A stretch of 64,000 bases of DNA from Escherichia phage 4MG. How positions within the stretch are numbered: position 1 is the stretch's first letter; the number at the start of each line of letters is the position of its first letter. A program made the translations under genes and the position numbers. Below, piece after piece: positions 4,145-19,984 of the stretch. The notes under the pieces were generated by a model. That model made no database searches and was not told where the DNA came from. It worked only from the letters and a program-made list of their open reading frames with translations. The stretch lies in the sequence record NC_022968.1; one strand, 5' to 3'.

Positions 4145-5827
4145 TTACAGTTGAGCGGCTGCTCGTTCACGAATCGTTGTCAGGTCTTCATCGACAATCA
4201 GTTTGCCGTTGTAGAACACACGACGCAGTTCGTTATCGTCAGACTGTACATCTTCAAGCTGACAATTGTCAATCAGTTCTAGCTGACCAAACATATTGCG
4301 AACAACCTTCAGGAAACCTTTTGCAGACTTCTTACCGAGGTCAGTCTTAGGTTCTTTGACAACCATGATCTGCTGACCATCAATAACCGCACCAGTTGCC
4401 TTCACAGCCATACCCAGTGAATCGCGGGTTGTGTACTGGGTAGTAAAGGAACCAACACCGTACACGATATTGCTGGATGCAAAGCCTTTATCTTTCAGAC
4501 GTTCAAAGATGTCTTTTGCACGAGCAACAGTGATAGAGTCACCGTAGATCAGGCCAACATGACTATCCAGAACTTTGTAACCCTTGGAGTTAACTTCACC
4601 ACCAAAGATTTCCCACAGACACTGGATTGCACCTTTGACTTCATGGTCTTGCAGATCGGAAGGCTCAAGATCAAGGTAATCCGTATCTTCATCGAATTCG
4701 ATGTTGTAATACTTACCTTTGACTGATACAACTTCACCTTTCTCGCTTTCCCATGCTGCGTCTTTGGCTTCAGACAGCGTTTCGAAATCACCAATATAAC
4801 GATACCCCGCAATGATATGTTCCGGAATGCCTGAATCAGGACGGAACACAACACGACCGTCACGAGCCATGATTTCTTCTTTCAGAATCAGTGCTGCACG
4901 GGTAATAATCGCCCAGAAGTCATAGCTGTCTGCTACGTAGGAAACAAAACCTTTCGGGAAAATTTCCGTGATGTAGCGTTTCAGGAATTCAACTTCAGCC
5001 AGGAAACGCAGTTCATCCAGGGACAAATCAGGATTTTCAGTTTTCAGGCGACCGACGATAAAGCCAATGTTAGTTGTTGCAACACTGTGTTCTGATGCAG
5101 GAATAGAACCAGCAACGAACTTACCTTTCATGTTGTAATAACGGTTCGCATACAGAATCGCAGGAATGGTATCTGTACCCATTGAGTTGATCAGTTGACC
5201 AAACTCACTCTGTGCCGCGTCGTGAGTACCAGATTCACCGCGATAAGCGAAGCAGTGGTTCTGGAACGGAACATGCAGGTTGTTATCACAAGTTTCGGCA
5301 GCGTATGCTTCAGACAGTTTGCGATACTGCCAGAAGGTAGTTGCAGTTGTGATGGTTTTCCATGTCTCTGCGGAGATCACGCTTTCCAGGAAGTTCGGCA
5401 ACCAGTAAAAATCAGGGTGCGTGTTCTGAATGGTGAACAGCGGAACCTGTACCGGGGACAGAGTGCCTTCAGGAATCGAACGGATTTCCAGTGGCAGGTA
5501 ACCAAGGTCATGCAGCTTTTCAAAGCCCCAGGTTTCAACCATGTCCGGGCCGATGCTCAGTTCACAAATTTCTTTGTACTGTGCGATAGCCGCTTTCTTT
5601 TTCATTTTGAAAAAGTTTTCGTTGAACAGGTCGATCAGGAACCATTTGATGAAACCTTGCAAGCCAGCCATCATCACACGCTGATCGTTATCAGCGAAGT
5701 GAATGAAGTGCTTTGCATTGCGTGGTGTCATGTTGTCCTGAACAATTTCAGAACGTCGGTCATACATGGAGATGTGTGAAGGTTTGTAAAAGTCAGCGAA
5801 TACGAGTGGGCTTTCTTTATGCAGCAT
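4145..5827 (-). CDS. nicotinamide phosphoribosyltransferase (NAMPT) family protein; candidate nicotinamide ADP-ribose transferase of an NAD+ reconstitution pathway
   Basis: 560-aa track ORF with AAGGAGA SD; NAMPT motif set FADFYKPSH, PLEIRSIPEGT, FTIQNTHPDFYWLPNF, AYRGESG, ASEHSVATT, VADSYDFW, FRPDSGIP. Confidence 0.88.
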   Translation of the reverse strand: MLHKESPLVFADFYKPSHISMYDRRSEIVQDNMTPRNAKHFIHFADNDQRVMMAGLQGFIKWFLIDLFNENFFKMKKKAAIAQYKEICELSIGPDMVETWGFEKLHDLGYLPLEIRSIPEGTLSPVQVPLFTIQNTHPDFYWLPNFLESVISAETWKTITTATTFWQYRKLSEAYAAETCDNNLHVPFQNHCFAYRGESGTHDAAQSEFGQLINSMGTDTIPAILYANRYYNMKGKFVAGSIPASEHSVATTNIGFIVGRLKTENPDLSLDELRFLAEVEFLKRYITEIFPKGFVSYVADSYDFWAIITRAALILKEEIMARDGRVVFRPDSGIPEHIIAGYRYIGDFETLSEAKDAAWESEKGEVVSVKGKYYNIEFDEDTDYLDLEPSDLQDHEVKGAIQCLWEIFGGEVNSKGYKVLDSHVGLIYGDSITVARAKDIFERLKDKGFASSNIVYGVGSFTTQYTTRDSLGMAVKATGAVIDGQQIMVVKEPKTDLGKKSAKGFLKVVRNMFGQLELIDNCQLEDVQSDDNELRRVFYNGKLIVDEDLTTIRERAAAQL

Positions 5828-5880
5828 GTTTTGTTTCTCCTTTGTGTGTTTTGATGGGGTGATTCTACACCCCGTTTCGT

Positions 5881-6414
5881 TTAGATGTCAAGTGAAAAAT
5901 CTAAAGATTTAGATTCTTCTGTTACAACCGTTGTTTCTTTAACCAGACGACAGCCTTTCACCTTGATTTCTTTGGCTGGTGACCACTTAGTCGCACGGAT
6001 ATAGAATGTGTTTGCACGAATAACCATGAACCGGGCTACATCTTCAGGTGGTTCCTCGTTAATAAAAATCGCAACACTTTCGTATGCAGGCCACTTCATA
6101 GGGTTTTCATCGGTAACATCGGAATGTATACCATTACCGTTGTTAGTGCGACCCGGTGTAGGCCAGATAGTACAAGGTCGATAGCAGGCGTGGTCATCAG
6201 GAACCTGAATAACGTGATTTTCTAACCACGAGCAAATTTTTTCCAGGTCAAAATCATAATGGTCTTCTTTCAGGTCTTCAATATCTGTACGATATTCAGC
6301 CCCAACACCACACTCACCGATTTGCCCGGTAATATGAGCGCACATGTCACGCTCAAAGTTTCCTGCGTATGAGTCAGTATCGACAACAAAAATAAAACGA
6401 GTTGATTCAGTCAT
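5881..6414 (-). CDS. hypothetical protein (177 aa) embedded between the NAMPT-like and Prs-like genes
   Basis: Track ORF; stop/start abuts 6414-7214; no motif recognised (no Nudix box, no P-loop). Confidence 0.5.
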   Translation of the reverse strand: MTESTRFIFVVDTDSYAGNFERDMCAHITGQIGECGVGAEYRTDIEDLKEDHYDFDLEKICSWLENHVIQVPDDHACYRPCTIWPTPGRTNNGNGIHSDVTDENPMKWPAYESVAIFINEEPPEDVARFMVIRANTFYIRATKWSPAKEIKVKGCRLVKETTVVTEESKSLDFSLDI

Positions 6415-7214
6415 TAAAAATTCTCCGTCCAGTCATGGTATGCGTAGATTTCATCAACCCCGCCATCGAGGATGATTTGTTTCCCGAATGAGAAAATGCC
6501 GTGCGTAACGTAAAGGATAACACGTTTTGCACCATTCTCTTTCAGGGCTTTAGCCAGGGCGATGAAGGTACGACCACCATCACAGATATCATCGACGACA
6601 ACGCATTCGCGTCCTTCAACATCACCAAAGATTGCTGTCCCCGTAATTTCGTTTGTTTTCAGGTCACGAACCTTACCAGCTTCAACCAGAGGGAGTCGCA
6701 TACGGTCGGCAACCTTCTGTGCCTTCTTGCGAGCGCCTGCGTCTGGTGCAACAATGGTCACATCTTTCCCGGCAAGTTGATCATGGAATTCTGCAACAAG
6801 AATCTCTTGTCCACGAATCTGAACATTGTCCAGCAGTGCAGCAGAAACATCACTGTGTGGGTCATCAACAATCACTTTGTCGAAGCCAAGCGAGTTGACG
6901 AGGTTTGCAAAAACCTTGATAGATAGTGACTGTCCAGGTTGCATCACGCGATCCTGACGGGCATACGGGATGTATGGCAGGTGCAGGGTAAACTCAGCAT
7001 GGTTATGCAGCCCTTCAAGACGGGAACATGCATCCACCAACATAGCTAATGCCATGACATCGGTGGAGTTTTTGATTTTTGCAGTGATATCGACGAAACC
7101 AATACCGCCTTTTGGGGCATGTTTCAGATCAATCTCAACCTGTTCCTCACCACCCTTGAAGGTGAAGTGGTTAACAGGCACTTCCAGTTTGTTCAAGCGT
7201 AATTCAATACTCAT
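6414..7214 (-). CDS. ribose-phosphate pyrophosphokinase (Prs) family protein; candidate ADP-ribose pyrophosphokinase
   Basis: 266-aa track ORF, AGGAGA SD; Prs motifs PYIPYARQDR and VVDDICDGGRTF, GAKRV; shorter than cellular Prs. Confidence 0.88.
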   Translation of the reverse strand: MSIELRLNKLEVPVNHFTFKGGEEQVEIDLKHAPKGGIGFVDITAKIKNSTDVMALAMLVDACSRLEGLHNHAEFTLHLPYIPYARQDRVMQPGQSLSIKVFANLVNSLGFDKVIVDDPHSDVSAALLDNVQIRGQEILVAEFHDQLAGKDVTIVAPDAGARKKAQKVADRMRLPLVEAGKVRDLKTNEITGTAIFGDVEGRECVVVDDICDGGRTFIALAKALKENGAKRVILYVTHGIFSFGKQIILDGGVDEIYAYHDWTENF

Positions 7215-7215
7215 T

Positions 7216-7533
7216 TTATTTCTCCTCTATCCAATCGTGAATTTCGTAAACCGTTTTGTTGTGGCCCATATTGGTGCGTGTTGTATCCTTTGTCAACCAT
7301 TTTATTTTCTCAAGGTTACCCACACACCGGGCAACAGTCGCCCTCGATAATCCTGTGGCATCAGCGATACTATCAAGTGACTCATGGTAAGTTTTCCGGA
7401 GAGACTTGAAGTAATGATACTGATGACGCATGTAGAGGTACACAATCTTGTCGTTGGACGAGGCGCAGGTCACCGACAGCAACTTCAGTTCGAAGTTACC
7501 GTAGATGTGCTTACCTGACGCGATGTACCCCAT
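7216..7533 (-). CDS. helix-turn-helix DNA-binding protein, putative transcriptional regulator (105 aa)
   Basis: Track ORF, GGAGGAGAG SD; HTH-like segment SIADATGLSRATVARCVGNL; first gene of leftward block next to divergent control region. Confidence 0.5.
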   Translation of the reverse strand: MGYIASGKHIYGNFELKLLSVTCASSNDKIVYLYMRHQYHYFKSLRKTYHESLDSIADATGLSRATVARCVGNLEKIKWLTKDTTRTNMGHNKTVYEIHDWIEEK

Positions 7534-8803: not shown

Positions 8804-9039
8804 GCAGACTTTCAAAGCTTCACAGACGAAAGAACATGCTGAAAGAAAAGCAGAAAAATATCACCGCAACTTTCCAAGTGTGCCGTGAAGCTATGAAGGC
8901 AAATCTGATAACGCCTTCACAGAGGCAGATTATCCGTGATATACTCCGGCCTGTGCTGCACGACCTGGAGGGCGAGGTTCGTGATGTTTTATGCCACATT
9001 CAAGAAGAACTTGAAAAATTAAATCAGGAGAATACATGA
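8800..9039 (+). CDS. hypothetical protein (79 aa)
   Basis: Track ORF; coupled start. Confidence 0.45.
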   Translation: MSRLSKLHRRKNMLKEKQKNITATFQVCREAMKANLITPSQRQIIRDILRPVLHDLEGEVRDVLCHIQEELEKLNQENT

Positions 9040-9629
9040 TCGACCACGTTACATCAGACACGCATTGGTGGCACACCAATATTCTGGGTTTTCCCTCGTG
9101 TGATAAATTCCGGAAAAACCTGTACGGTCCAAAGGAAGTCCGTGAAAGTCTGTATGCCATGAATGCTGGCATGATTGAAATCTGGAATAAGCACGTCAAA
9201 CCAGATGATGTCGTAGCACACCTCGGTGATTTCGTGATTGCTTACGGACGCTACATGGAGCCTCGCGTTCGTGACATCTTGGAAAAGATCAACGGAAAGA
9301 TCATTCTGGTTGGTGGAAACCATGACAACCGAGATACGAAACGTATCTTCCGTGAGTTTGGTCACGAAGTTGTTGATTATAAAGAGATTAACTTCAGCAC
9401 TGGAAAAGAGAAGGTGCATGTGTGTATGTCTCACTATCCGTTTGCATCGTGGAATAAAGCTCACCACGGGTCAGTTATGCTGCACGGTCATAGCCACGGC
9501 TCCTATACAGCCCCTGGTGGACGTATTCTGGATGTGGGTTGGGATGTACATGGTCGTCCTCTGACGATGCGTGAAGCCGTCCTGATGTGCCTTGAAAAAC
9601 CAATTTACACTGCTGATCACGGAGAATAA
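9036..9629 (+). CDS. calcineurin-like metallophosphoesterase (candidate RNA/DNA-end phosphatase)
   Basis: Track ORF 197 aa; motifs HLGDFV, GGNHDNRD, HGHSHG typical of metallophosphatases. Confidence 0.7.
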   Translation: MIDHVTSDTHWWHTNILGFPSCDKFRKNLYGPKEVRESLYAMNAGMIEIWNKHVKPDDVVAHLGDFVIAYGRYMEPRVRDILEKINGKIILVGGNHDNRDTKRIFREFGHEVVDYKEINFSTGKEKVHVCMSHYPFASWNKAHHGSVMLHGHSHGSYTAPGGRILDVGWDVHGRPLTMREAVLMCLEKPIYTADHGE

Positions 9630-9630
9630 T

Positions 9631-9987
9631 ATGCACAACAAAGTACGTAATTTCTTACCTAAGAAAACATCTAAGTCTTTTTATGCTACGATACACATTG
9701 CTGGGGATCTGGAATCAGCAAGACCATTGCTCCGTCAATGGACTATGCGTGGTGCTTGTGTACAACTAGTCGGGTGTGATTACATCTACACTGGCGGCTC
9801 TGAACGGGGTATGACAGTTCGCATCATGCAGTATCCTCGTTTTGAACGACCGGAGCACGAGATCCTTGAAATGGCGGTTGAACTTGCTAACTTTTTAGCT
9901 CAGGAACTCTGCCAGATCAGTTTCAGCATTGAAACTCCTTACAATACAACGTATTACCAAGCAGAAGGTTACGAAAAGCGATCATGA
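9631..9987 (+). CDS. hypothetical protein (118 aa)
   Basis: ATG after GGAG SD; frame of track ORF. Confidence 0.4.
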   Translation: MHNKVRNFLPKKTSKSFYATIHIAGDLESARPLLRQWTMRGACVQLVGCDYIYTGGSERGMTVRIMQYPRFERPEHEILEMAVELANFLAQELCQISFSIETPYNTTYYQAEGYEKRS

Positions 9988-10187
9988 AAATTCACAACAT
10001 AACCAAGGACAGGATTCATTTCATAATGGATTCAGGGGCTTACGGTTCAATTTCAAAGGTGGATGCCATGAAGTTTCTGTATGCTTCAAATATTCCTCAG
10101 GCAAAGCTTGACTCCCGTTCAGGAGAGTGTATTATTGACTCTATTACGAATACACAAGAACTGTGGGAGATATATCATGAAATTTAA
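9984..10187 (+). CDS. hypothetical protein (67 aa)
   Basis: Track ORF; coupled start. Confidence 0.4.
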   Translation: MKIHNITKDRIHFIMDSGAYGSISKVDAMKFLYASNIPQAKLDSRSGECIIDSITNTQELWEIYHEI

Positions 10188-11097
10188 CGTAGATGATCTG
10201 GTTGCTAAAAAGCTGGTAACCAAAAAGACTTACACCGAAGGCCCGTTCGCGGGTCTGTCTGTACTGAAATATAAGAACAATGTGTTCTGGGATAACCTGT
10301 GGCACACAGATGCGCGTCTGCTTGAGTGCCGTGGCATGGTTGTTGATGCAGAGGACAACGTTGTTATCTGGCCTTTCACGAAGATTTTCAATCGCTTCGA
10401 GAACAACACTGATGTCCCACAGGACAAGTTGGTGTGCGTACCTCGTAAAGTCAATGGCTTTATGGCAGCAATGAGTGTTTACAATGGTGAAGTAATTGTG
10501 TCTACCACAGGAACACTTGATTCTGAGTTTGCACAAATGGCAAAAGATAAGATCACTGGTTCCATGCCTGAAGGGATGCTTGACTATTTCGTGAAGAATG
10601 CTGGACCTTGCACACTTATCTTTGAAATATGTGATGAGAGTGATCCCCACATTGTCGCAGAAGAAGCGGGTGCTTATCTGATTGGTTGCCGGGTCCACTT
10701 AAGTGGTGGTATGCTTCCAGAGTGGGACCTTGATAGAGTTGCAAATCGTTATGGTTGGAAACGTGCTGACTGGGACAACATGATCTTCAGCGATGTTGTT
10801 AAGGCTTCCAAGTCAGTTAATCATGAAGGTTTTGTTGTTCGTGATGTTGACACCAATGAGCTACTGCTGAAAATTAAGTCTCCACATTACCTGGCGAAGA
10901 AGTTCCTGATGCGTGGTAGCCAGAACAAGTGGGACCTGATTTGGGACAACCCGAAAGAAGCCAAAAAACGTATCGACGAAGAGTTCTACGAACTTCTTGA
11001 CTGGCTGCGCTGGGCTTACGAAAAAGATGAGTGGGCGGCTAAGGACTCTCAGTATCGTCGTATGATTATTGAAAAATATTTTGAGGATCGCAAATGA
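10177..11097 (+). CDS. RNA ligase-like nucleotidyltransferase (Rnl2-like)
   Basis: 306 aa; covalent nucleotidyltransferase motifs KVNG (motif I), NHEGFVVRD (motif IV), LKIKSPHY (motif V). Confidence 0.55.
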   Translation: MKFNVDDLVAKKLVTKKTYTEGPFAGLSVLKYKNNVFWDNLWHTDARLLECRGMVVDAEDNVVIWPFTKIFNRFENNTDVPQDKLVCVPRKVNGFMAAMSVYNGEVIVSTTGTLDSEFAQMAKDKITGSMPEGMLDYFVKNAGPCTLIFEICDESDPHIVAEEAGAYLIGCRVHLSGGMLPEWDLDRVANRYGWKRADWDNMIFSDVVKASKSVNHEGFVVRDVDTNELLLKIKSPHYLAKKFLMRGSQNKWDLIWDNPKEAKKRIDEEFYELLDWLRWAYEKDEWAAKDSQYRRMIIEKYFEDRK

Positions 11098-11330
11098 CAC
11101 TCATGTCAATCAAGAACAAACTTGACCGGGCTGTTTCCATAATTACCAGACTTATCATTGGGTTATCTGTGTTTATCTTCTTATTTGCACTGATAATCTT
11201 TGTGAATTGGGTTATCGAAACTCTGGGTGGTAAAGTAATATTCGGTGGAATTCTGCTCATCATTGCGGTGATTGGCTGTTATGGTGTTGGATGTTCCATC
11301 TACCCACACAAAGAAAAGGGTGAAAAATGA
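11094..11330 (+). CDS. small membrane protein (78 aa)
   Basis: Track ORF; two hydrophobic helices. Confidence 0.45.
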   Translation: MTLMSIKNKLDRAVSIITRLIIGLSVFIFLFALIIFVNWVIETLGGKVIFGGILLIIAVIGCYGVGCSIYPHKEKGEK

Positions 11331-11671
11331 TCATCTGGCTTGATGACTTGAGAGACCCAAAAGACTACGGGTATCCTGATGCCTTGTGGTTCAAGACCTC
11401 TCAGAAGTTTATGGATTTTCTTGATAATCGGTCAAAGTTCTATCGTTATGTCACAGAGTGGCATTTTGATAATGACCTAGGTGAAGATTCAGAAAAGGAG
11501 GGCTATGACTGCCTACTGGCCTTGGAAGAGAAGCTTGTGTATGGGAAACTTCCTGTGCATGATGCTAAACTCTATGTCCATACGTCTAACCCTTCTGCGG
11601 CACAAAAGTTCATGCTTGCAAAAGAGAGCTTCTTGAAGTATCGTATCACGATCTTAAGAAACAATTACTGA
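11327..11671 (+). CDS. hypothetical protein (114 aa)
   Basis: Track ORF; coupled start. Confidence 0.45.
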   Translation: MIIWLDDLRDPKDYGYPDALWFKTSQKFMDFLDNRSKFYRYVTEWHFDNDLGEDSEKEGYDCLLALEEKLVYGKLPVHDAKLYVHTSNPSAAQKFMLAKESFLKYRITILRNNY

Positions 11672-11680
11672 GGAGAAGAG

Positions 11681-12088
11681 ATGGAAAAGACTCTGATCAT
11701 CCTGCGTGGTGTGTCTGGTGCTGGTAAGTCTACAGTAGCAGATATGCTGGCAGAGGATTTGTGGCCTGTCTATGAAGCAGATAAATTCCACTACACAGAA
11801 GATGGCGTGTACGACTGGAAACCTGAAAACATGCAGGCTGCACACGCATGGTGTCAGTCAGAGGTCAAAGATATGATGGGGTGGAATATCAGCAGGATCA
11901 TCGTATCTAACACCTCTACCAGTGAAAAAGAACTGAAGCCGTATCTTGATCTCGCAGCGGAGAACGGGTATCGTGTCATCAGCTTGGTGGTAGAAAACCG
12001 TCATGGCAATGACTCCATTCACAGCGTTCCGCAGGAAACCCGCGATGCTCAAGAGCGTCGTCTGCGTAACTCATTGAAATTACAGTAA
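11681..12088 (+). CDS. P-loop kinase, polynucleotide 5'-kinase-like
   Basis: 135 aa; Walker A GVSGAGKST at N-terminus; sits between RNA ligase-like and Sir2-like genes. Confidence 0.55.
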   Translation: MEKTLIILRGVSGAGKSTVADMLAEDLWPVYEADKFHYTEDGVYDWKPENMQAAHAWCQSEVKDMMGWNISRIIVSNTSTSEKELKPYLDLAAENGYRVISLVVENRHGNDSIHSVPQETRDAQERRLRNSLKLQ

Positions 12089-12098
12089 GGGGAAACAA

Positions 12099-12875
12099 TT
12101 GAGGCGTTTAATTGTTATTAGTGGTGCAGGCTTCTCTGCTGAAAGCGGTGTTCGTACATTCCGTACTGATACAGACTCCGGAAAGGCTTTGTGGGATGAG
12201 TACGACCTTGAAGAGGTCTGTAATATCCATGCTTTCCGTGGTAATTTCTATCACAAAACGCACATGTTTTATAACAAGCGTCGTGTAGAACTGCAAACTG
12301 TGCATCCGAATGCTGCACATATGCGTGTTGCTGAGTGGTATAAAAACTACCCAAAACAGGTTGTTAATCTGACGACAAACGTAGATGACCTGCTGGAACG
12401 TGCTGGTGTTCCTAAGGAAGATACTCTGTATATCCACGGATATCTGAAAGAACTTCGGTATAAACTTCACGAAGATTCTGAAGAGCAGTTAGTTGACATT
12501 GGTTACAATGAAGTAGATCCTGATGAATTTCACTGGTGCAAACCAAATGTGGTCTTCTTTGGTGAGGCTGCTCCAGCATATAACGACCTATACTCAACCC
12601 TAGATAGCCTGACATCTGAAGACATGGTGATTGTTGTTGGATGCTCAAACACAGTTATCAACTTCAACTGGGAGCTTTTCCCAGCATCAAGGATGGGTAC
12701 TAAGATTGTTGTGGTTAACCCTAATGTTCGCTACGATGAACAGTTGATGTACGAAGACGCTGGTGTTGTTGTATACCGAACTGGTGCTGTAGATGCGTTC
12801 AGCAACCCTGGTCTCATCAAAATGGTTGAGGATCACCTTGAAGGTAAAACCTCATTGCAGAAGAAGGAGAAATAA
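12099..12875 (+). CDS. Sir2-family (sirtuin-like) NAD+-dependent protein
   Basis: 258 aa, TTG start after AAGGGG SD; GAGFSAESGVRTFR NAD-binding signature, YIHGYL, VVGCSNTV, VVVNPN; no Cys4 zinc module. Confidence 0.7.
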   Translation: MRRLIVISGAGFSAESGVRTFRTDTDSGKALWDEYDLEEVCNIHAFRGNFYHKTHMFYNKRRVELQTVHPNAAHMRVAEWYKNYPKQVVNLTTNVDDLLERAGVPKEDTLYIHGYLKELRYKLHEDSEEQLVDIGYNEVDPDEFHWCKPNVVFFGEAAPAYNDLYSTLDSLTSEDMVIVVGCSNTVINFNWELFPASRMGTKIVVVNPNVRYDEQLMYEDAGVVVYRTGAVDAFSNPGLIKMVEDHLEGKTSLQKKEK

Positions 12876-14179
12876 TGTCAATTAGTTTAGACACACCAAC
12901 ACTATACGCCATTAACAAGGACGGATCGTATCAAGTTTGGAATGTAACCACAGAAGGTGATGAGGTTGTCGTTTCTTTCGGTAAGGAAAATGGAAAGATT
13001 CAACAAAAGCGCACCAAGTGTGAAATGAAAAACATTGGTCGTTCCAATGAAACCACCGCTGAGTTCCAGGCCGTCCTGGAGGCCCGGTCTAAGTGGGAGA
13101 AACAGGTCCGTTTAGGTTATCGTGAGACCAAAGAGGAGTTACAGACGGAAGAGAACTTCTCTCCTATGCTGGCACACGATGCGATCAAACGGTCAAAGTC
13201 AATCGTCTATCCTGCGTATATTCAGCCAAAGCTCGATGGTGTTCGTGCTCTTGTGACGCTTGACAAGGACGGCATCCCGGTGTTTAATAGCCGTGGCAAC
13301 AAAACATACCCAGTACAGGGCGCTTTATTGCAGCAAGTTAAAGAACTTGCAGAGCACACAGGGTTTGACAAGTTCGATGGTGAACTGTATATTCATGGTC
13401 TAAGCCTTCAGAAGATTGTTGCTTTGGCTAAGAAGTGGCGCACCCCTGAACAGATTGAAGCTGAGATCGAGAAAGACTATCAGGCTGATATCAAGCGCTG
13501 TAATAAGGCGGTTGCCGATGGTGAGCATCTCTGGAAAGACTTTGATGGTAATGTGTGGGCTGTTTCCACGTATAAACCAGTAAAAGACGTTGACCGCTTC
13601 AGTGGTTATTCCAGTCTTGACCTAGAGTATCACATCTTTGACATTCCTGTGAATGCACAAAGCCCTTGGTACTCTTATGAGCATGATAAGACCAGACATC
13701 AAGATCTGTTGGTGGTTGCCGATGCTGTTGAATGTGAACTTAACGTACCTATGGTGAAAGTTATCCACGGGATCGTGGTATCTTCTGAAAGGGAAGTTAA
13801 ATGGTCCATCGGTAAATACATGGAGCAGGGATTTGAAGGTTCAATCATCCGAAACTTCAAAGGTGTCTACGAATTTGGTCAACGATCCTCTGATCTCCAA
13901 AAATGGAAACAGTTCCAGGATGGTGAGGCAAAAGTTCTTGATTCTGTAGAGGATAAGAACGGTGAGGGTGTCCTGCTCTGTGAAGAAAGAGATGGTACTC
14001 GATTCAACTGCAAAATGAAAGGCACTCACGCAGAGCGTTCTCAGGCGAAGATGCTATTGTTGGTTGGCGATTTCATCAACTTTACATTCCAGTCGCGTAC
14101 TGATGATGGTGTACCTCAGTTCCCGGTGGGGCAGAGTGTACGTGAACTTGATACATTAACATGGGAGCCAGTATACTAA
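12875..14179 (+). CDS. ATP-dependent DNA ligase
   Basis: 434 aa; motif I KLDGVR, motif IV-like FEGSIIR; size typical of phage ATP ligases. Confidence 0.8.
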   Translation: MSISLDTPTLYAINKDGSYQVWNVTTEGDEVVVSFGKENGKIQQKRTKCEMKNIGRSNETTAEFQAVLEARSKWEKQVRLGYRETKEELQTEENFSPMLAHDAIKRSKSIVYPAYIQPKLDGVRALVTLDKDGIPVFNSRGNKTYPVQGALLQQVKELAEHTGFDKFDGELYIHGLSLQKIVALAKKWRTPEQIEAEIEKDYQADIKRCNKAVADGEHLWKDFDGNVWAVSTYKPVKDVDRFSGYSSLDLEYHIFDIPVNAQSPWYSYEHDKTRHQDLLVVADAVECELNVPMVKVIHGIVVSSEREVKWSIGKYMEQGFEGSIIRNFKGVYEFGQRSSDLQKWKQFQDGEAKVLDSVEDKNGEGVLLCEERDGTRFNCKMKGTHAERSQAKMLLLVGDFINFTFQSRTDDGVPQFPVGQSVRELDTLTWEPVY

Positions 14180-14625
14180 TGGGATTCTATAAACGTAAAC
14201 CTCAGGAAGTTGAAGCACACGTATTCAACGGATCGAGCACAGGGGTTGGTCAGGTGACCAAGTGGATCGAGACCGGGGTCTGGAAAGACGCTGAGATCCA
14301 CACACGGGATATCCGAAATATGGACGTGAATGGCGTTCAGGCGTTTCCTGGTGATTACATAGTAAAAGTGGGTGACCAGTTCACAGCAATGTCCCCACAA
14401 GCGTTCAGCGACCTTTATGAGGCTGTTAGCGATGAAGATCGTCTTCCAGGGGACTACAAAGCAAAGAACGTAGTGATGGGTGACAAAGTTGAGATGTGGG
14501 GTAAAGACTACATCGTAAAAGGTCACAAAATCAGTGGTGACGATATTATCCTCACCCTTGATGACGGATCTAACATTCAGCTTCGCGGCGAAGCAACCGT
14601 GAAGGTAACAGAGGTACGTGCATAA
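14179..14625 (+). CDS. hypothetical protein (148 aa)
   Basis: ATG after GGGAG SD in frame of track ORF. Confidence 0.45.
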   Translation: MGFYKRKPQEVEAHVFNGSSTGVGQVTKWIETGVWKDAEIHTRDIRNMDVNGVQAFPGDYIVKVGDQFTAMSPQAFSDLYEAVSDEDRLPGDYKAKNVVMGDKVEMWGKDYIVKGHKISGDDIILTLDDGSNIQLRGEATVKVTEVRA

Positions 14626-14996
14626 TGATCTGGTACTGGCTGGCGCTCTTAGGCGCAACACTGGTCACAGGGGGCGGTATTTATACCGCTTTCCGTTTCC
14701 GGAAAGACAAGCTCGATGACTTTATCGACTGGATTCAGGGTAAAGTAAAACGACTGCTGTTGATTTGGGCTGTGGTGTTGGGCCTGGTAACGCTGGCCCT
14801 TACCAAACCGTTGTGGAACACCATGACCTGTCAGTTCGACGGCATGGCCTACAAGGTGAATACGTCTTATTCTTGGTATAAGAATGGGACATATGGCGAC
14901 AAATGCCTGTTCGTTGCTAAGAACGGTGCTCTTTTGCCATTACGAATTATCCGTGACCAACCGGAAGGTGATCACGCAACAGATGTAATTAATTAA
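14625..14996 (+). CDS. membrane protein (123 aa)
   Basis: Track ORF; two predicted TM helices. Confidence 0.45.
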   Translation: MIWYWLALLGATLVTGGGIYTAFRFRKDKLDDFIDWIQGKVKRLLLIWAVVLGLVTLALTKPLWNTMTCQFDGMAYKVNTSYSWYKNGTYGDKCLFVAKNGALLPLRIIRDQPEGDHATDVIN

Positions 14997-15005
14997 GGAG
15001 AATCA

Positions 15006-15695
15006 ATGAGTAAGGTTTACGAAACACTTTTAGCGATGACAAAACCAACAGATCTGTACGCATATGCGGAGCATGTTATCGAATGGAACCATGTTGCATA
15101 TCGTGCTCGCAATAATGTGGCAACACCATTCGATCTGCAATGGGGCTTTATTCGTGAAGAATTCAACGAACTCGTTGACGCACTCCGTGTTGGTGACCGT
15201 ATCGAAACTGTTGACGCTGCCTGTGATCTCTTTGTTGTAGCTTCATACGCTTGCCAGTTGAAGAGTCCTGAGTATCTTCGTGAAGCCTGTATTCCTTCAC
15301 CGACACTGACGTTCACTATTGGCGATCTTGAGCACAACCTGTATGGCAATATGCGAGACCCGGTTTATGTTCTTAAGCTGGTAACTGCATTATGTTATCG
15401 CCTTGATATTAATCTTGACTACAATATGCGACAGGTGTTACATTCAAACGATACCAAATACCCATATGTGCAAGATATCCTTGCCTTGTGGCCTGGTAAG
15501 GCGAAAGCCGAAGCTTTACGTCAAGAATGTAAGGCAATCGAAGATCGTTCCAATGGTCGTTATGAGGGTGTTGGTTTCCGCGAGGTAATTGATATCCGCA
15601 ACCCGGATGTTAAAGGTTCACGCCTTGTCTTCTTCGATAGAAACGGAAAAATCATGAAGCCAAGCACTTTCGAAAGTCCGAAAATTATTGCTTGA
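15006..15695 (+). CDS. mazG: MazG-like nucleoside triphosphate pyrophosphohydrolase
   Basis: 229 aa; EExxE-type motif REEFNELVDA followed by ETVDAACD. Confidence 0.55.
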   Translation: MSKVYETLLAMTKPTDLYAYAEHVIEWNHVAYRARNNVATPFDLQWGFIREEFNELVDALRVGDRIETVDAACDLFVVASYACQLKSPEYLREACIPSPTLTFTIGDLEHNLYGNMRDPVYVLKLVTALCYRLDINLDYNMRQVLHSNDTKYPYVQDILALWPGKAKAEALRQECKAIEDRSNGRYEGVGFREVIDIRNPDVKGSRLVFFDRNGKIMKPSTFESPKIIA

Positions 15696-16592: not shown

Positions 16593-16756
16593 TGTTACTA
16601 AACCTGAAAGCGTCTACCTGGGAAAAGTTGCAGCACTTAGCGCGAGTTAAGAATAAGTCTGCTGCTGCCCTTGTAGCAAAAATTGTTGACGAACATGTTG
16701 ACGAGAAAGTAAAAACTACCTATAAAATTGAAGAGGAGAACCAAACCAATGCTTAA
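16592..16756 (+). CDS. ribbon-helix-helix-like small DNA-binding protein (54 aa)
   Basis: Not in track; TAATG coupling; N-terminal pattern LNLKASTWEKLQHLARVKNKSAAALVAKIV resembles Arc/CopG RHH fold. Confidence 0.4.
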   Translation: MLLNLKASTWEKLQHLARVKNKSAAALVAKIVDEHVDEKVKTTYKIEEENQTNA

Positions 16757-17639
16757 GAATATCAAACGTGTGATTTTTGCTGGCCTGATCGCTCTGGGTG
16801 CCGTTGGCCTGACTGGTTGTGAACGTGCAACTGTCCCGGCAGGTTATGTGGGTGTGAAGGTTGACCTGTATGGCGACGAAAAGGGTGTTCAGCAGCAGGA
16901 AGTGGGTGTTGGTAAATACTGGCTGACCTGGAACGAAGAAATCTATCAGTTCCCTACATTCAACCAGTTAAACAACTACGACCAACCGTTTAACTTCCAG
17001 ACCAAGGATTCTATGACGGTCTCTGCGAAGGTTGGTGTTGAGTATTACGTTGACCGCTCCAAGGTCACCAAGATCTTCCAGACCTACCGTAAAGGTGTTC
17101 AGGAAATCACTGATGTCAACATTCGTCAGAACATCTCTGATGCACTGATCAAAGAAGCGGGTACGATGGATATCGGTACGCTGGCTGGCGATGGTAAATC
17201 TCAGCTTCTGGATCGTGTGACGAAGACCCTGAAAGCGAAGCTTGACCCGATTGGTATCGTGATCGTGAAACTGTCTTACACTGATGATCTGCGTTATCCA
17301 CCACAGGTAACCGCATCCATCAACGCGAAGATCGAAGCGACTCAGAAAGCGCTGCTGCGTGAAAACGAAATCCAGCAGACCAAAGCTGAAGCTCAGAAAC
17401 AGATCGAAGCCGCTCGCGGTGAAGCTGAATCTAAGCGACTGCAAGCTCAGGGTGAGGCAGATGCTAAAGTAGCACTGGCAAAAGGTGAAGCAGAATCCAT
17501 CCAACTGCGTGGTGATTCTCTCCGCAAAAACCCAGAAATTATGCAACTGGAAGCGATCAACAAGTGGAACGGTGTGACCCCGGTCTATATGACCAGCGGT
17601 TCTCAGACCCCATTCGTTACCCTGCCAGCAGGTAAATAA
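16749..17639 (+). CDS. SPFH (band-7/prohibitin-like) domain lipoprotein
   Basis: 296 aa; lipobox LTGC after hydrophobic signal; SPFH-like core followed by long Ala/Glu/Gln coiled coil. Confidence 0.7.
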   Translation: MLKNIKRVIFAGLIALGAVGLTGCERATVPAGYVGVKVDLYGDEKGVQQQEVGVGKYWLTWNEEIYQFPTFNQLNNYDQPFNFQTKDSMTVSAKVGVEYYVDRSKVTKIFQTYRKGVQEITDVNIRQNISDALIKEAGTMDIGTLAGDGKSQLLDRVTKTLKAKLDPIGIVIVKLSYTDDLRYPPQVTASINAKIEATQKALLRENEIQQTKAEAQKQIEAARGEAESKRLQAQGEADAKVALAKGEAESIQLRGDSLRKNPEIMQLEAINKWNGVTPVYMTSGSQTPFVTLPAGK

Positions 17640-17702
17640 GAGTTGACAAAAGGCCCGGTGATAGATTATCATCGGGTCTCAACTTAACAAAGGAGATACA
17701 AA

Positions 17703-17897
17703 ATGATCCGCACAACAATTCTTTTAGCAGTAGCTCTGCTCTCTTCTCCGGCGTTCGCCACAGTTAATACACTCTCTTTGGTAGATGAATACACCGATGG
17801 GAGTTCTAAAGTATGCATCTACAGCGACGGTAACCGTACCGAAAGCGTTGTGAAAGAAGGTGCTGGCTCATGTCCGTCTAAAAAGACGTTCCACTAA
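17703..17897 (+). CDS. small secreted protein (64 aa)
   Basis: Track ORF; signal peptide ending AFA. Confidence 0.45.
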   Translation: MIRTTILLAVALLSSPAFATVNTLSLVDEYTDGSSKVCIYSDGNRTESVVKEGAGSCPSKKTFH

Positions 17898-17908
17898 GAG
17901 GATGAACC

Positions 17909-18415
17909 ATGAGAGTAACTGATCAGCATGTTTTCTTCTTCACTTATCGTGATATGTTCAGCAACCACTTTCGACAGATAATTCCTATTCGTTGTGGTGG
18001 CTATGAGTTCTTCACGGTGGAGCACTTTATGATGTTCCAAAAAGCAATGCTCTTTGATGACAAAGAGATTGCTGCACGTATTGCCACAGTTGATAATCCA
18101 AACGAGGCAAAAGCGCTGGGTCGTAAAGTCAGGGACTTTGACAACAGTGTTTGGGAAGAAAACAGAATGGACATTGTAACAAACGGTCTTGTTCTGAAAA
18201 TGAAGGCTAACCGCTCTATTCTGGAGTCTGCACTGACTCACAGAGATGCTGGGCGGCGATTTGTAGAGGCATCCCCGTATGATGCAATCTGGGGTGTAAA
18301 ACTGAATGAATATGATCCACGCATTGATGATCCTGCTAACTGGCAAGGTCTTAATCTTCTCGGTGAGTGCTGGGAAAGAGCAATTGATGTTGTGATCGCA
18401 GCTTCGTGGAGGTGA
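17909..18415 (+). CDS. NADAR-domain (YbiA-like) protein
   Basis: 168 aa; motifs MFSNHF, TVEHFMMFQKA, DAIWGV, GLNLLGECWERA matching the YbiA/NADAR pattern. Confidence 0.75.
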   Translation: MRVTDQHVFFFTYRDMFSNHFRQIIPIRCGGYEFFTVEHFMMFQKAMLFDDKEIAARIATVDNPNEAKALGRKVRDFDNSVWEENRMDIVTNGLVLKMKANRSILESALTHRDAGRRFVEASPYDAIWGVKLNEYDPRIDDPANWQGLNLLGECWERAIDVVIAASWR

Positions 18416-18416
18416 G

Positions 18417-18854
18417 TTGAAATTAGAGATTGAACTTGTTCCAAAAACAGCTTGGTTTACTAACTTACGCTCTCACCTCACTAAATCCCAATGGGATGTC
18501 GTAAGAAAGAAATGCTATGCCAAAGCCAATTACAGATGTGAGATTTGTGGTGGTAAAGGGAATAAGCACCCTGTTGAGTGTCACGAAATCTGGGACTTTG
18601 GTAATGGTAAGATCACGCTGAAAGGTCTTATCGCGCTCTGCCCGTCATGTCACGAAGTAAAACATATCGGCCTTGCTGGTATTCGTGGAAGAGGAGAGAT
18701 TGCCCTTCGTCACTTCATGAGGGTCAACAATGTCTCCCGACAGGTTGCAGAGAAATACGTGAGCGAGGCATTTGCCTTGTATCATGAACGGAGTAAGCGA
18801 GAGAAATGGGAACTGGATGTCCGGTATTTGGACGAGTATTTGAGTAACGATTGA
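18417..18854 (+). CDS. HNH endonuclease (homing-endonuclease-like)
   Basis: 145 aa; CEICGG ... HPVECHEIWDF ... CPSCHEVKH HNH/zinc motifs. Confidence 0.7.
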   Translation: MKLEIELVPKTAWFTNLRSHLTKSQWDVVRKKCYAKANYRCEICGGKGNKHPVECHEIWDFGNGKITLKGLIALCPSCHEVKHIGLAGIRGRGEIALRHFMRVNNVSRQVAEKYVSEAFALYHERSKREKWELDVRYLDEYLSND

Positions 18855-18862
18855 GAGGGCTA

Positions 18863-19984
18863 GTGGGATATCCGTATGATAAAGATTGGAAAAATAAAGT
18901 CACGAATGACTGTGTGATCGCTTTAGACCTTGACCAGACTTGCTTTGTGTCTGCTGCTGGCGCTGAGAAGCGCACAATTAAGGCAACACACATCGCCTCT
19001 GGCAGGGAAAAGATCTTCAAAAACAGAACAGAATTCTGGGGTTCCACCAAAAGGGTGGTGGGCGGTTGGCTAAAAGACCAAAACGCCAATATGGAAATTA
19101 AGGCAAAATCCGAGGGTCGTGAATTCACACCTTGGGGACGCGATGACTTCCTGATTGAGGATATTCAGACTCCGGAACCTGTTGAAAACTGTCTGCACAT
19201 CCTGAAAACAAAGATCAACGCGATCTTTGAGCACTTAGAGATGGACAGCCAGTATGGTATGGGCGTGTTGGGTGGGGAAAATAACTTCCGTCTACTACTG
19301 CCTGCACCAGAACGCTATAAGGGTAACCGTGAGGACACCCTACGTCCTAAACTGTTACAGGAAACGCGTGATTACGTCAAGAAGAAGTACAAGGCAAAGG
19401 TAATTGACGGAGTAGAGGCAGATGATTATCTTTCTGTCCTGATGAATACCGGGTGGGAGTTCTACCAGGCGACTGGCAAGTTCAACTACATGGTTGCATC
19501 CTTCGACAAAGACCAGAAAGGAACGCCGGGGCTTCTGTTCGACACCATGCGGGACAGTGAAGAGAGATCATGGAAACATCCTATCCCTATGGTCATTGAT
19601 GACTCTATGGGTGAGATTTGGATGGAAGGTAATAAGGTTAAGGGTTGGGGACGTAAGTTCTTCGGCTACCAGATGCTCTGTGGCGATAGCTCAGATAACA
19701 TCAAGCCTTATCAGTGCTTTGACATCTCCGGACGATTTGGTGATACCGCCGCATTCAACCTAATCGGTCATTTACAGACTGAAAAGGATATGTGGACAGC
19801 TATTGTTGACCAGTATAAGACCTGGTTCCCTCAGGGTGTGGAGTTTACATCGTGGGATGGAACACAGCGTAAAATGAGTGCTGGTCAGTGGGCTTCGATC
19901 ATCTTCCAGATGGTATACATGAAGCGCACAGCCAACGATCCAACAACTCTGGCAACAGAACTGCGTCGTGTGGGGGTTTTATGA
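18863..19984 (+). CDS. 5'-3' exonuclease / flap endonuclease (RNase H-like)
   Basis: About 373 aa; N-terminal CVIALDLDQT, catalytic GVEADDYLSVL and helix-3-turn-helix CGDSSDNIKP motifs; GTG start after GAGAGGG SD. Confidence 0.8.
   Translation: MGYPYDKDWKNKVTNDCVIALDLDQTCFVSAAGAEKRTIKATHIASGREKIFKNRTEFWGSTKRVVGGWLKDQNANMEIKAKSEGREFTPWGRDDFLIEDIQTPEPVENCLHILKTKINAIFEHLEMDSQYGMGVLGGENNFRLLLPAPERYKGNREDTLRPKLLQETRDYVKKKYKAKVIDGVEADDYLSVLMNTGWEFYQATGKFNYMVASFDKDQKGTPGLLFDTMRDSEERSWKHPIPMVIDDSMGEIWMEGNKVKGWGRKFFGYQMLCGDSSDNIKPYQCFDISGRFGDTAAFNLIGHLQTEKDMWTAIVDQYKTWFPQGVEFTSWDGTQRKMSAGQWASIIFQMVYMKRTANDPTTLATELRRVGVL

Follow-up and report, generated by a model that had tools for sequence, protein, structure and literature searches.

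Escherichia phage 4MG carries a stand-alone NADAR gene with a predicted role against DarT1-type ADP-ribosylation

Introduction

An open reading frame on the plus strand of Escherichia phage 4MG (NC_022968.1) at nt 17909–18415 encodes a NADAR-domain protein, and the question raised by this locus is which substrate such an enzyme would have in the infected cell and against what it might protect the phage. A first-pass annotation had placed the product in the YbiA/NADAR family, and proposed that it is a counter-defence protein directed at ADP-ribosylating toxins. The stretch analysed here, referred to as the window, comprises 64,000 nucleotides. The family label, the concept of phage NADARs in counter-defence, the mechanism and a tested member of the same clade are already published or annotated, and the gene can be considered against that background.

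Phage T4 counters DarTG1 enzymatically by means of gp30.3, named AdfN^T4 (Johannesman et al. 2025, PMC11825919). The same study covers a pair of divergent phage NADARs, AdfN^Bas32 and AdfN^Bas60. Each of them neutralises DarT1 alone in E. coli and restores the growth of RB69, T5 and Bas25 on DarTG1 hosts, but neither of them counters DarTG2, and the tested phage NADARs act on the DarT1-type guanine modification, not on the thymidine modified by DarT2 (PMC11825919). In the published studies, every NADAR assayed hydrolyses guanine-linked ADP-ribose (G-ADPr) in vitro, and the proteins assayed come from all four families (including PMC12945103, PMC11833690). Members of the Glu-type NADAR family and the YbiA types have a wider range, which takes in cytidine-ADPr and RNA, whereas T4-type and DarG1-type NADARs remove G-ADPr only (PMC12945103, PMC11833690). 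Enzymes that are active in vitro differ in the protection they give in vivo, and neither YbiA nor T4 gp30.3 protects from DarT1 when taken out of its own context. From genomic context, Iyer et al. 2022 argued that soluble ADPr derivatives are the main targets of phage NADARs.

Results and Discussion

The gene and its neighbours

The gene is intact, with an ATG at 17909, 168 codons before the stop and a TGA at 18413–18415. It is preceded by the Shine-Dalgarno-like sequence AAGAGGA at 17896–17902 (+), read from the sequence 6 nt 5' of the ATG and kept in phage GAP31. All four NADAR motifs quoted in the first-pass annotation for a 168-aa ORF were found again, MFSNHF at residues 16–21, TVEHFMMFQKA at 36–46, DAIWGV at 125–130 and GLNLLGECWERA at 147–158. 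An antisense ORF of 150 aa (17894–18346, minus strand) has no PHROG match and is therefore treated as spurious. Against the GAP31 orthologue, with a product 95% identical, the gene shows a dN/dS of 0.045, and in the comparison with KpS8 (88% identical proteins) the synonymous sites are saturated; these alignments show strong purifying selection on the gene.

The DNA of the region is 91–92% identical to Enterobacter phage EC152, Escherichia phage LNA4 and Cronobacter phage GAP31, and about 80–82% identical to many relatives among Klebsiella, Salmonella and Raoultella phages, with 55 of the 64 matching records covering at least 80% of a 3.3-kb query reaching from the SPFH gene to the exonuclease gene. 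By these identities the window belongs to a Seunavirus-like myovirus of the Vequintavirinae.

Upstream of the NADAR gene lies a gene for an SPFH/Band_7 lipoprotein (16728–17639; Pfam 77 bits, phrog_200 'lipoprotein'), followed by a 64-aa ORF (17703–17897, +) that matches phrog_4641 and has a hydrophobic N-terminus, signal-peptide-like by eye. Downstream there is an HNH endonuclease gene with a TTG start (18417–18854, +; phrog_5200 with E=1e-74, the Pfam HNH match being below cut-off), and after it an exonuclease gene (18851–19984). The neighbours named in the first-pass annotation, an SPFH lipoprotein and secreted-peptide pair on one side and an HNH endonuclease on the other, are correct by Pfam and PHROG. 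The TTG of the HNH gene is located 1 nt past the NADAR stop codon and a GGAGG is found inside the 3' end of the NADAR gene, which suggests that the translation of the two genes may be coupled; the annotations of GAP31 and KpS8 show the same stop/start arrangement.

The order SPFH gene, small ORF, NADAR gene and HNH gene is a conserved synteny in Seunavirus and Mydovirus (Vequintavirinae). The NADAR genes of phi92/Bas60 and of Phapecoctavirus are found in unrelated contexts, and since the vequintaviral synteny is not common to them, it gives no pointer to a functional link of NADAR with SPFH, the 64-aa ORF or HNH; a functional module of the four genes was accordingly rejected. The annotations of the equivalent GAP31 region and of the corresponding 49.5 kb of EC152 list no ADP-ribosyltransferase toxin, and because of the latter the gene is called an orphan here. 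The flanking positions, where a DarT1 operon partner would adjoin, are occupied by the 64-aa ORF and the HNH endonuclease gene, and this phage-encoded NADAR has no cognate DarT among its neighbours (SPFH, small ORF, HNH, exonuclease).

Promoters

A consensus scan detected a sigma-70-like promoter, TTGACA-18-TATCAT (11/12), at 17643–17672 (+), in the intergenic stretch that separates the SPFH gene from the 64-aa ORF. Both hexamers are kept in GAP31. Transcription of the NADAR gene probably begins here, in a putative unit of which the 64-aa ORF would be the first gene. Further perfect or near-perfect sigma-70-like promoters are located at 15692 and 15978, and the NADAR gene lies within a block of early/middle DNA-metabolism genes, behind conserved sigma-70-like promoters. 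The scan as a whole was not enriched over shuffled sequences (13 sites against 9.0 +/- 3.1), and early transcription by the host RNA polymerase is therefore something that we infer.

Family assignment and fold

The Pfam profile NADAR PF08719 (DUF1768) matches the protein with E=6.2e-34 and 118.1 bits, the gathering cut-off being 35.1, and residues 17–155 align with profile positions 13–155 of 163. This match is far beyond chance. PHROG 1017, a family of unknown function, also matches (E=1.6e-50). The protein has a single domain, which begins at its N-terminus. In a phmmer search of the PDB only two distinct sequences matched, the NADAR of Phytophthora nicotianae (PnNADAR, 8BAU) with E=4.9e-15 and E. 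coli YbiA (2B3W) with E=0.0024, and no DarG1-type NADAR chain was matched at E<=1. An AF2 model built from a 110-sequence alignment (mean pLDDT 97.5, pTM 0.92) shows the NADAR alpha+beta fold, and Foldseek gave significant PDB matches for it only to the same two structures, 8BAU with a TM of 0.82 and 2B3W with a TM of 0.76. Since the HMM, the predicted fold and the catalytic residues described below agree, membership in the NADAR superfamily is established at the levels of sequence, fold and active site, and the family call of the first-pass annotation is thereby confirmed.

Other profiles say less about the type of NADAR. The NCBIfam model TIGR02464 ('riboflavin biosynthesis intermediates N-glycosidase', 'ribofla_fusion') gives 120 bits with a cut-off of 73.7, but the match is not discriminating because the model evidently covers the whole superfamily. 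The anti-phage NADAR model DS32_2 of NCBIfam was rejected, with 35.9 bits against a cut-off of 240. In PADLOC, the window protein and AdfN^Bas60 both match the candidate-defence model PDC-M42C, and neither of them matches a DarG model.

Active site

Residues were mapped by a phmmer alignment to 8BAU, in which the chain index equals the residue number + 2, and the roles of the residues were taken from the description of the ADP-ribose complex (Schuller et al. 2023, PMC11543638). In PnNADAR, E43 and E125 flank the distal ribose of ADP-ribose, the pyrophosphate is held by K50, R79, W89, R93, W133 and, via water, D130, and D86 touches the adenosine ribose. K75 corresponds to K115 of the E. coli C7 NADAR, a residue that is dispensable in vitro and essential against DarT1 in cells (PMC11543638). 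The PnNADAR residues E43, K50, K75, R79, W89, R93, E125, D130 and W133 correspond to E38, K45, K68, R72, W82, R86, E120, D125 and W128 of the window protein. Eight of the nine mapped ADP-ribose ligands are identical, E125 (E120) among them, and the only changed position mapped, a minor difference, is D86, which is Asn79 here.

The conserved catalytic pair of glutamate and lysine, E43/K50 in PnNADAR and E88/K95 in EcC7, is present as Glu38 (codon 18020–18022, +) and Lys45 (codon 18041–18043, +). The former, equivalent also to E36 of T4 AdfN, is the catalytic distal-ribose ligand, and the latter, equivalent to T4 K43, is the essential phosphate ligand. Glu120 is encoded at 18266–18268 (+) and Lys68 at 18110–18112 (+). 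In the alignment of 110 homologues E38, K45, W82, E120 and D125 are invariant, and K68, R72 and W128 are conserved in at least 90%. The enzyme is predicted to be catalytically competent.

The position of PnNADAR E125 separates the families: the NADAR and YbiA types have Glu there, the T4 type has His, and in DarG1 an Asp two residues upstream is used (PMC11543638). The window protein has Glu120 at this position and Phe118 at -2, and is therefore a Glu-type NADAR. It is placed in the family of PnNADAR, SCO5665 and the sigma70-linked type, being closer to PnNADAR than to YbiA or T4. Read from its sequence, the ORF encodes a stand-alone Glu-type enzyme of the 'NADAR family', not of the YbiA, DarG1 or T4 type.

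In an alignment of 13 sequences, the Lys68 column contains Ala in YbiA, Gln in T4 gp30.3 and Lys in both AdfN^Bas60 and PnNADAR. On these few data points, the residue in this column seems to track which NADARs neutralise DarT1 in uninfected cells, and the position may separate the NADARs that can do so from the others.

Relatives and annotation

The closest tested relative of the window protein is AdfN^Bas60, with 39% identity over the full length and E=2e-35. Its sequence was identified through the BASEL paper and tblastn. Bas60–62 are the phi92-like phages PaulScherrer, EmilieFrey and JohannJBalmer, and the NADAR is phi92 gp223, or bas60_0111. The BLASTP score is 109 bits for AdfN^Bas60, 71 for PnNADAR and 37 for YbiA, the most distant detectable reference relative (27% identity), and T4 gp30.3 gave no match. 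In a neighbour-joining tree of 31 sequences (163 columns, 200 bootstraps, AdfN^Bas32 left out) the Seunavirus clade is sister to a clade of AdfN^Bas60 and two metagenomic phage proteins, and the smallest clade with both the window NADAR and AdfN^Bas60 leaves out YbiA, PnNADAR and T4 AdfN in 198 of the 200 bootstraps. At 39% identity the relation to AdfN^Bas60 is best described as homology within a sub-clade, not as orthology. The genomic position of the Seunavirus NADAR gene differs from that of the phi92 and Phapecoctavirus genes.

The RefSeq label 'NADAR family protein' is already found on the orthologues of GAP31, KB57 and Ro1. Several GenBank records of orthologues read 'GTP cyclohydrolase II', which is probably derived from RibA-NADAR fusion proteins, or 'hypothetical protein', and 'YbiA-like N-glycosidase' also occurs among the public labels. 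These labels are wrong or uninformative, and the assignment made here is of value for annotation.

Proposed role

For the substrate, the timing of expression and the biological role of the window NADAR we infer the following. The product is predicted to be a guanine-ADP-ribose N-glycohydrolase of the AdfN type, and we think it likely, with about two-thirds of our confidence placed here, that it is an early-expressed enzyme which removes guanine-linked ADP-ribose from nucleic acids and serves as an orphan antitoxin against DarT1-type defence. The gene would be transcribed early by the host RNA polymerase from the sigma-70-like promoter about 240 bp upstream. The enzyme would then bind ADP-ribose that is linked to guanine, at its exocyclic N2, in single-stranded DNA of the phage, with the pyrophosphate held by Lys45, Arg72, Trp82, Arg86, Asp125 and Trp128, and the distal ribose flanked by Glu38 and Glu120. 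Hydrolysis of the N-glycosidic bond between ribose and guanine would release free ADP-ribose and restore replicable DNA. Abortive infection by a DarT1-type (DarTG1) system would in this way be cancelled and the toxin itself left untouched, and since the target is the damage and not the toxin, the protein might be called an orphan type-IV-like antitoxin. Its spectrum may also be broader than this, as Glu-type relatives that have been tested act on RNA as well and take off cytidine-ADPr; by analogy, the marks that other ADP-ribosyltransferases leave on guanine and cytidine, in RNA or in DNA, may be among its substrates. The counter-defence role proposed in the first-pass annotation is supported; the direct experimental precedent is the action of the clade-mate AdfN^Bas60 against DarT1, and it is specific for guanine and DarT1. 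Membership in a clade with this validated AdfN is what the homology search and the tree show.

If this is true, the phages known to counter DarTG1-type DNA ADP-ribosylation with an enzymatic orphan antitoxin would come to include the Seunavirus/Mydovirus group. Its members are therapeutic candidates for Klebsiella, Enterobacter, Cronobacter, Salmonella and E. coli, and the prediction of host range on DarTG1-positive strains would therefore be helped. In itself this is an ordinary, well-conserved phage NADAR gene, with a role against DarT1-type defence as the most likely one.

Alternative explanations

In the widest form of the substrate spectrum considered above, to which we give a clearly smaller though still appreciable chance, the protein would, as a Glu-type NADAR, be a broad eraser of base-linked ADP-ribose (guanine-N2, cytidine) on phage DNA and RNA that protects against several unrelated ADP-ribosyltransferase defences or toxins (DarT1, pierisin/ScARP-like, YarT-like). 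It would then perhaps be tied to the NAD+ economy of the phage (NAMPT/PRPP synthetase salvage, Sir2-based RNA repair), for instance as a source of free ADP-ribose for salvage.

The protein might instead act on soluble ADP-ribose derivatives in the NAD+ network of the phage, where it would clear or recycle small ADPr by-products or host immune signals, and its partners would be the NAMPT/PRPP-synthetase salvage genes and the 'RNA repair' genes for Sir2, RNA ligase, kinase, MazG and phosphoesterase; this we regard as unlikely. The genes are present in the window, with NAMPT at 4145–5827 (-), PRPP synthetase at 6414–7214 (-), a metallophosphoesterase at 9036–9629, a T4-like RNA ligase at 10081–11097, a P-loop kinase-like ATPase at 11681–12088, SIR2 at 12099–12875 and a MazG-like protein at 15006–15695, and Iyer et al. 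2022 describe exactly such an rV5/Mydo-type sirtuin neighbourhood and favour soluble substrates. However, 5 kb separate the NADAR gene from SIR2, and NAMPT lies about 12 kb away on the opposite strand. No SIR2 was found in the corresponding 27-kb locus of GAP31, where the best tblastn hit (E=0.14) is a chance match, and yet GAP31 retains its NADAR at the identity and dN/dS given above, so that a dependence of NADAR on the phage SIR2 was rejected. NADARs are also inactive on the phosphate-linked (KptA/Tpt1-type) ADP-ribosylation of RNA and DNA ends (PMC11833690), riboflavin intermediates are the only soluble NADAR substrates demonstrated, and the clade-mate AdfN^Bas60 acts on DarT1 damage by itself (PMC11825919).

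A non-enzymatic or other anti-defence role, in which the protein would be an ADP-ribose-binding inhibitor of an NAD+-consuming defence and not a DNA repair enzyme, appears improbable to us. Inhibition of Retron-Eco1 by a phage NADAR has been reported, and reportedly needs no enzymatic activity (Carabias 2024), and the window protein retains the whole ADPr-binding pocket. Against this, the invariance of Glu38, Lys45 and Glu120 in the 110 homologues argues for selection on catalysis and not on binding alone, and the closest tested relative, AdfN^Bas60, is enzymatic against DarT1 (PMC11825919).

Least probable of these, and very improbable in our view, is a housekeeping YbiA-type N-glycosidase acting on the first intermediates of the riboflavin pathway as a damage-control or overflow enzyme: the TIGR02464 score, the analogous chemistry (in each case the substrate is an exocyclic-amine riboside) and the annotation labels of EC152 and Bas60 agree with it, but YbiA is more distant than AdfN^Bas60 and PnNADAR in BLASTP and in the PDB search, falls outside the window clade in the tree, no riboflavin genes (RibA/RibD) are annotated in the equivalent GAP31 and EC152 regions, and only one phage NADAR was found by Johannesman et al. 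to be distantly related to the YbiA group (PMC11825919). A DarG1-type antitoxin was rejected, as the protein is without a DarT neighbour, an N-terminal extension, the Asp at -2 and a PADLOC DarG match.

Comparison with known systems

E. coli YbiA has the same fold as the window protein, keeps the three residues E, K and E, and passes TIGR02464. It differs in its low identity and its position outside the window clade, is without an equivalent of Lys68, and gives no protection against DarT1 in vivo; its gene is a chromosomal, LexA-regulated housekeeping gene. AdfN^T4 (gp30.3) is, like the window protein, an orphan NADAR of a phage, and is used by T4 against DarTG1 (PMC11825919), but there is no BLASTP match between the two and gp30.3 has His at the equivalent of Glu120 and Gln at that of Lys68. 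It needs the infection context of a T-even phage, and alone does not neutralise DarT1 (PMC11825919).

The DarG1 proteins, for example those of E. coli C7 and Geobacter lovleyi, belong to the same superfamily with the same predicted hydrolysis of guanine-N2 ADPr, and the residue critical in vivo, EcC7 K115, corresponds to K68. DarG1 is associated with DarT1 and has an N-terminal extension, both of which are absent from the window NADAR, and its catalytic acid is a specific Asp at the -2 position (EcC7 D171), where the window protein has Phe118 and uses E120 instead. The best match among solved structures, the ADP-ribose complex of PnNADAR, is of a eukaryotic protein with about 30% identity and with D86 in place of Asn79.

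AdfN^Bas60 is the system most like the one described here. It differs in length (183 aa against 168 aa), has two insertions that are absent from the window NADAR, one of about 9 aa behind residue 24 and one of about 7 aa behind residue 62, and has Tyr where the window protein keeps Trp128. The phages belong to different subfamilies, Stephanstirmvirinae for Bas60 and Vequintavirinae for the window, and the gene order in phi92/Bas60 is FtsH-like ATPase, hypothetical protein and NADAR, against SPFH, small ORF, NADAR, HNH and exonuclease in the window. Both are stand-alone phage NADARs without a cognate toxin, and they share a sub-clade, the PADLOC model PDC-M42C, the same E, K and E, and the lysine that matters in vivo.

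Genes flanking the NADAR gene

The NADAR gene (17909-18415, plus strand) is preceded on the same strand by genes for an SPFH/Band_7 lipoprotein of 303 aa, with a weak similarity to HflK/HflC, and then for a 64-aa ORF belonging to phrog_4641 with a signal-peptide-like N-terminus (together 16728-17897). This pair is kept throughout Seunavirus and Mydovirus, and in phage SSE121 it is separated from the NADAR gene by an additional 67-aa ORF. A sigma-70-like promoter (17643-17672, plus strand) lies in the gap after the SPFH gene, ahead of the 64-aa ORF, and is overlapped by an imperfect inverted repeat, CCCGGTGAT...ATCATCGGG, around 17650-17680 that could be the terminator of the SPFH gene or an operator. 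Both the promoter and the repeat are kept in phage GAP31.

Downstream, an HNH endonuclease gene (18417-18854, plus strand) starts with a TTG codon 1 base past the NADAR stop. Its product scores 16.6 bits against Pfam HNH, below the cut-off of 21.4, and has a strong match to phrog_5200 (E=1e-74). The gene is a conserved resident of this phage clade, and phages AV124, KP12 and Ro1 carry extra homing-endonuclease or transposase insertions in this region.

Relatives of the NADAR protein

Orthologues and homologues of the NADAR in phages EC152 (L009:30531-31037, counted within the EC152 stretch) and Bas60 (L003:4001-4552, counted within the Bas60 stretch) and in other GenBank records are labelled 'GTP cyclohydrolase II', 'YbiA-like N-glycosidase', 'Dda-like helicase', 'DNA methyltransferase' or 'hypothetical protein'. 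The NCBIfam model TIGR02464 is of the equivalog_domain type and is named for riboflavin N-glycosidase; the NADAR of the window, which is not a YbiA, scores above its cut-off, and the model name therefore over-reaches. The PADLOC candidate-defence component PDC-M42C matches both the window NADAR (17909-18412, 97.6 bits) and AdfN^Bas60, the NADAR of Bas60 (L003:4001-4549, 117.4 bits), so bacterial relatives of this NADAR clade may belong to a candidate system, as yet uncharacterised, of the defence or toxin-antitoxin type.

In a single record, the 130-kb sequence of the E. coli O157:H7 phage vB_EcoM_EP57 (OR544956.1, 15998-16138), the match is confined to NADAR residues 116-162, with 43% identity and 28% coverage; this fragment may be what is left of the gene after loss of the NADAR in that phage lineage. 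BASEL phages of Vequintavirus are reported to be without a NADAR.

NAD+ salvage and SIR2 genes

An NAD+ salvage cluster at 4145-7533 lies on the minus strand, opposite to the NADAR gene, and encodes a NAMPT of 560 aa, a 177-aa ORF (phrog_23621, no match in Pfam), a PRPP synthetase of 266 aa and a small wHTH protein. Since the NAMPT is not accompanied by a recognisable NMNAT, the cluster would count as a complete NARP2 only with adenylylation provided by a host enzyme or by the 177-aa ORF.

A SIR2-family ORF of 258 aa (12099-12875, Pfam 83.5 bits, phrog_2162) is found also in EC152, KpS8, Ro1 and others; GAP31 is without SIR2 and has a 74-aa ORF in that slot. Its flanks in the window carry genes for a metallophosphoesterase (9036-9629), a T4-like RNA ligase (10081-11097), a P-loop kinase-like ATPase (11681-12088), an ATP-dependent DNA ligase (12875-14179) and a MazG-like pyrophosphohydrolase (15006-15695), all on the plus strand. 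The block at 9036-15695 is the rV5/Mydo-type sirtuin neighbourhood, predicted to be an NAD+-dependent RNA-repair system (Iyer et al. 2022).
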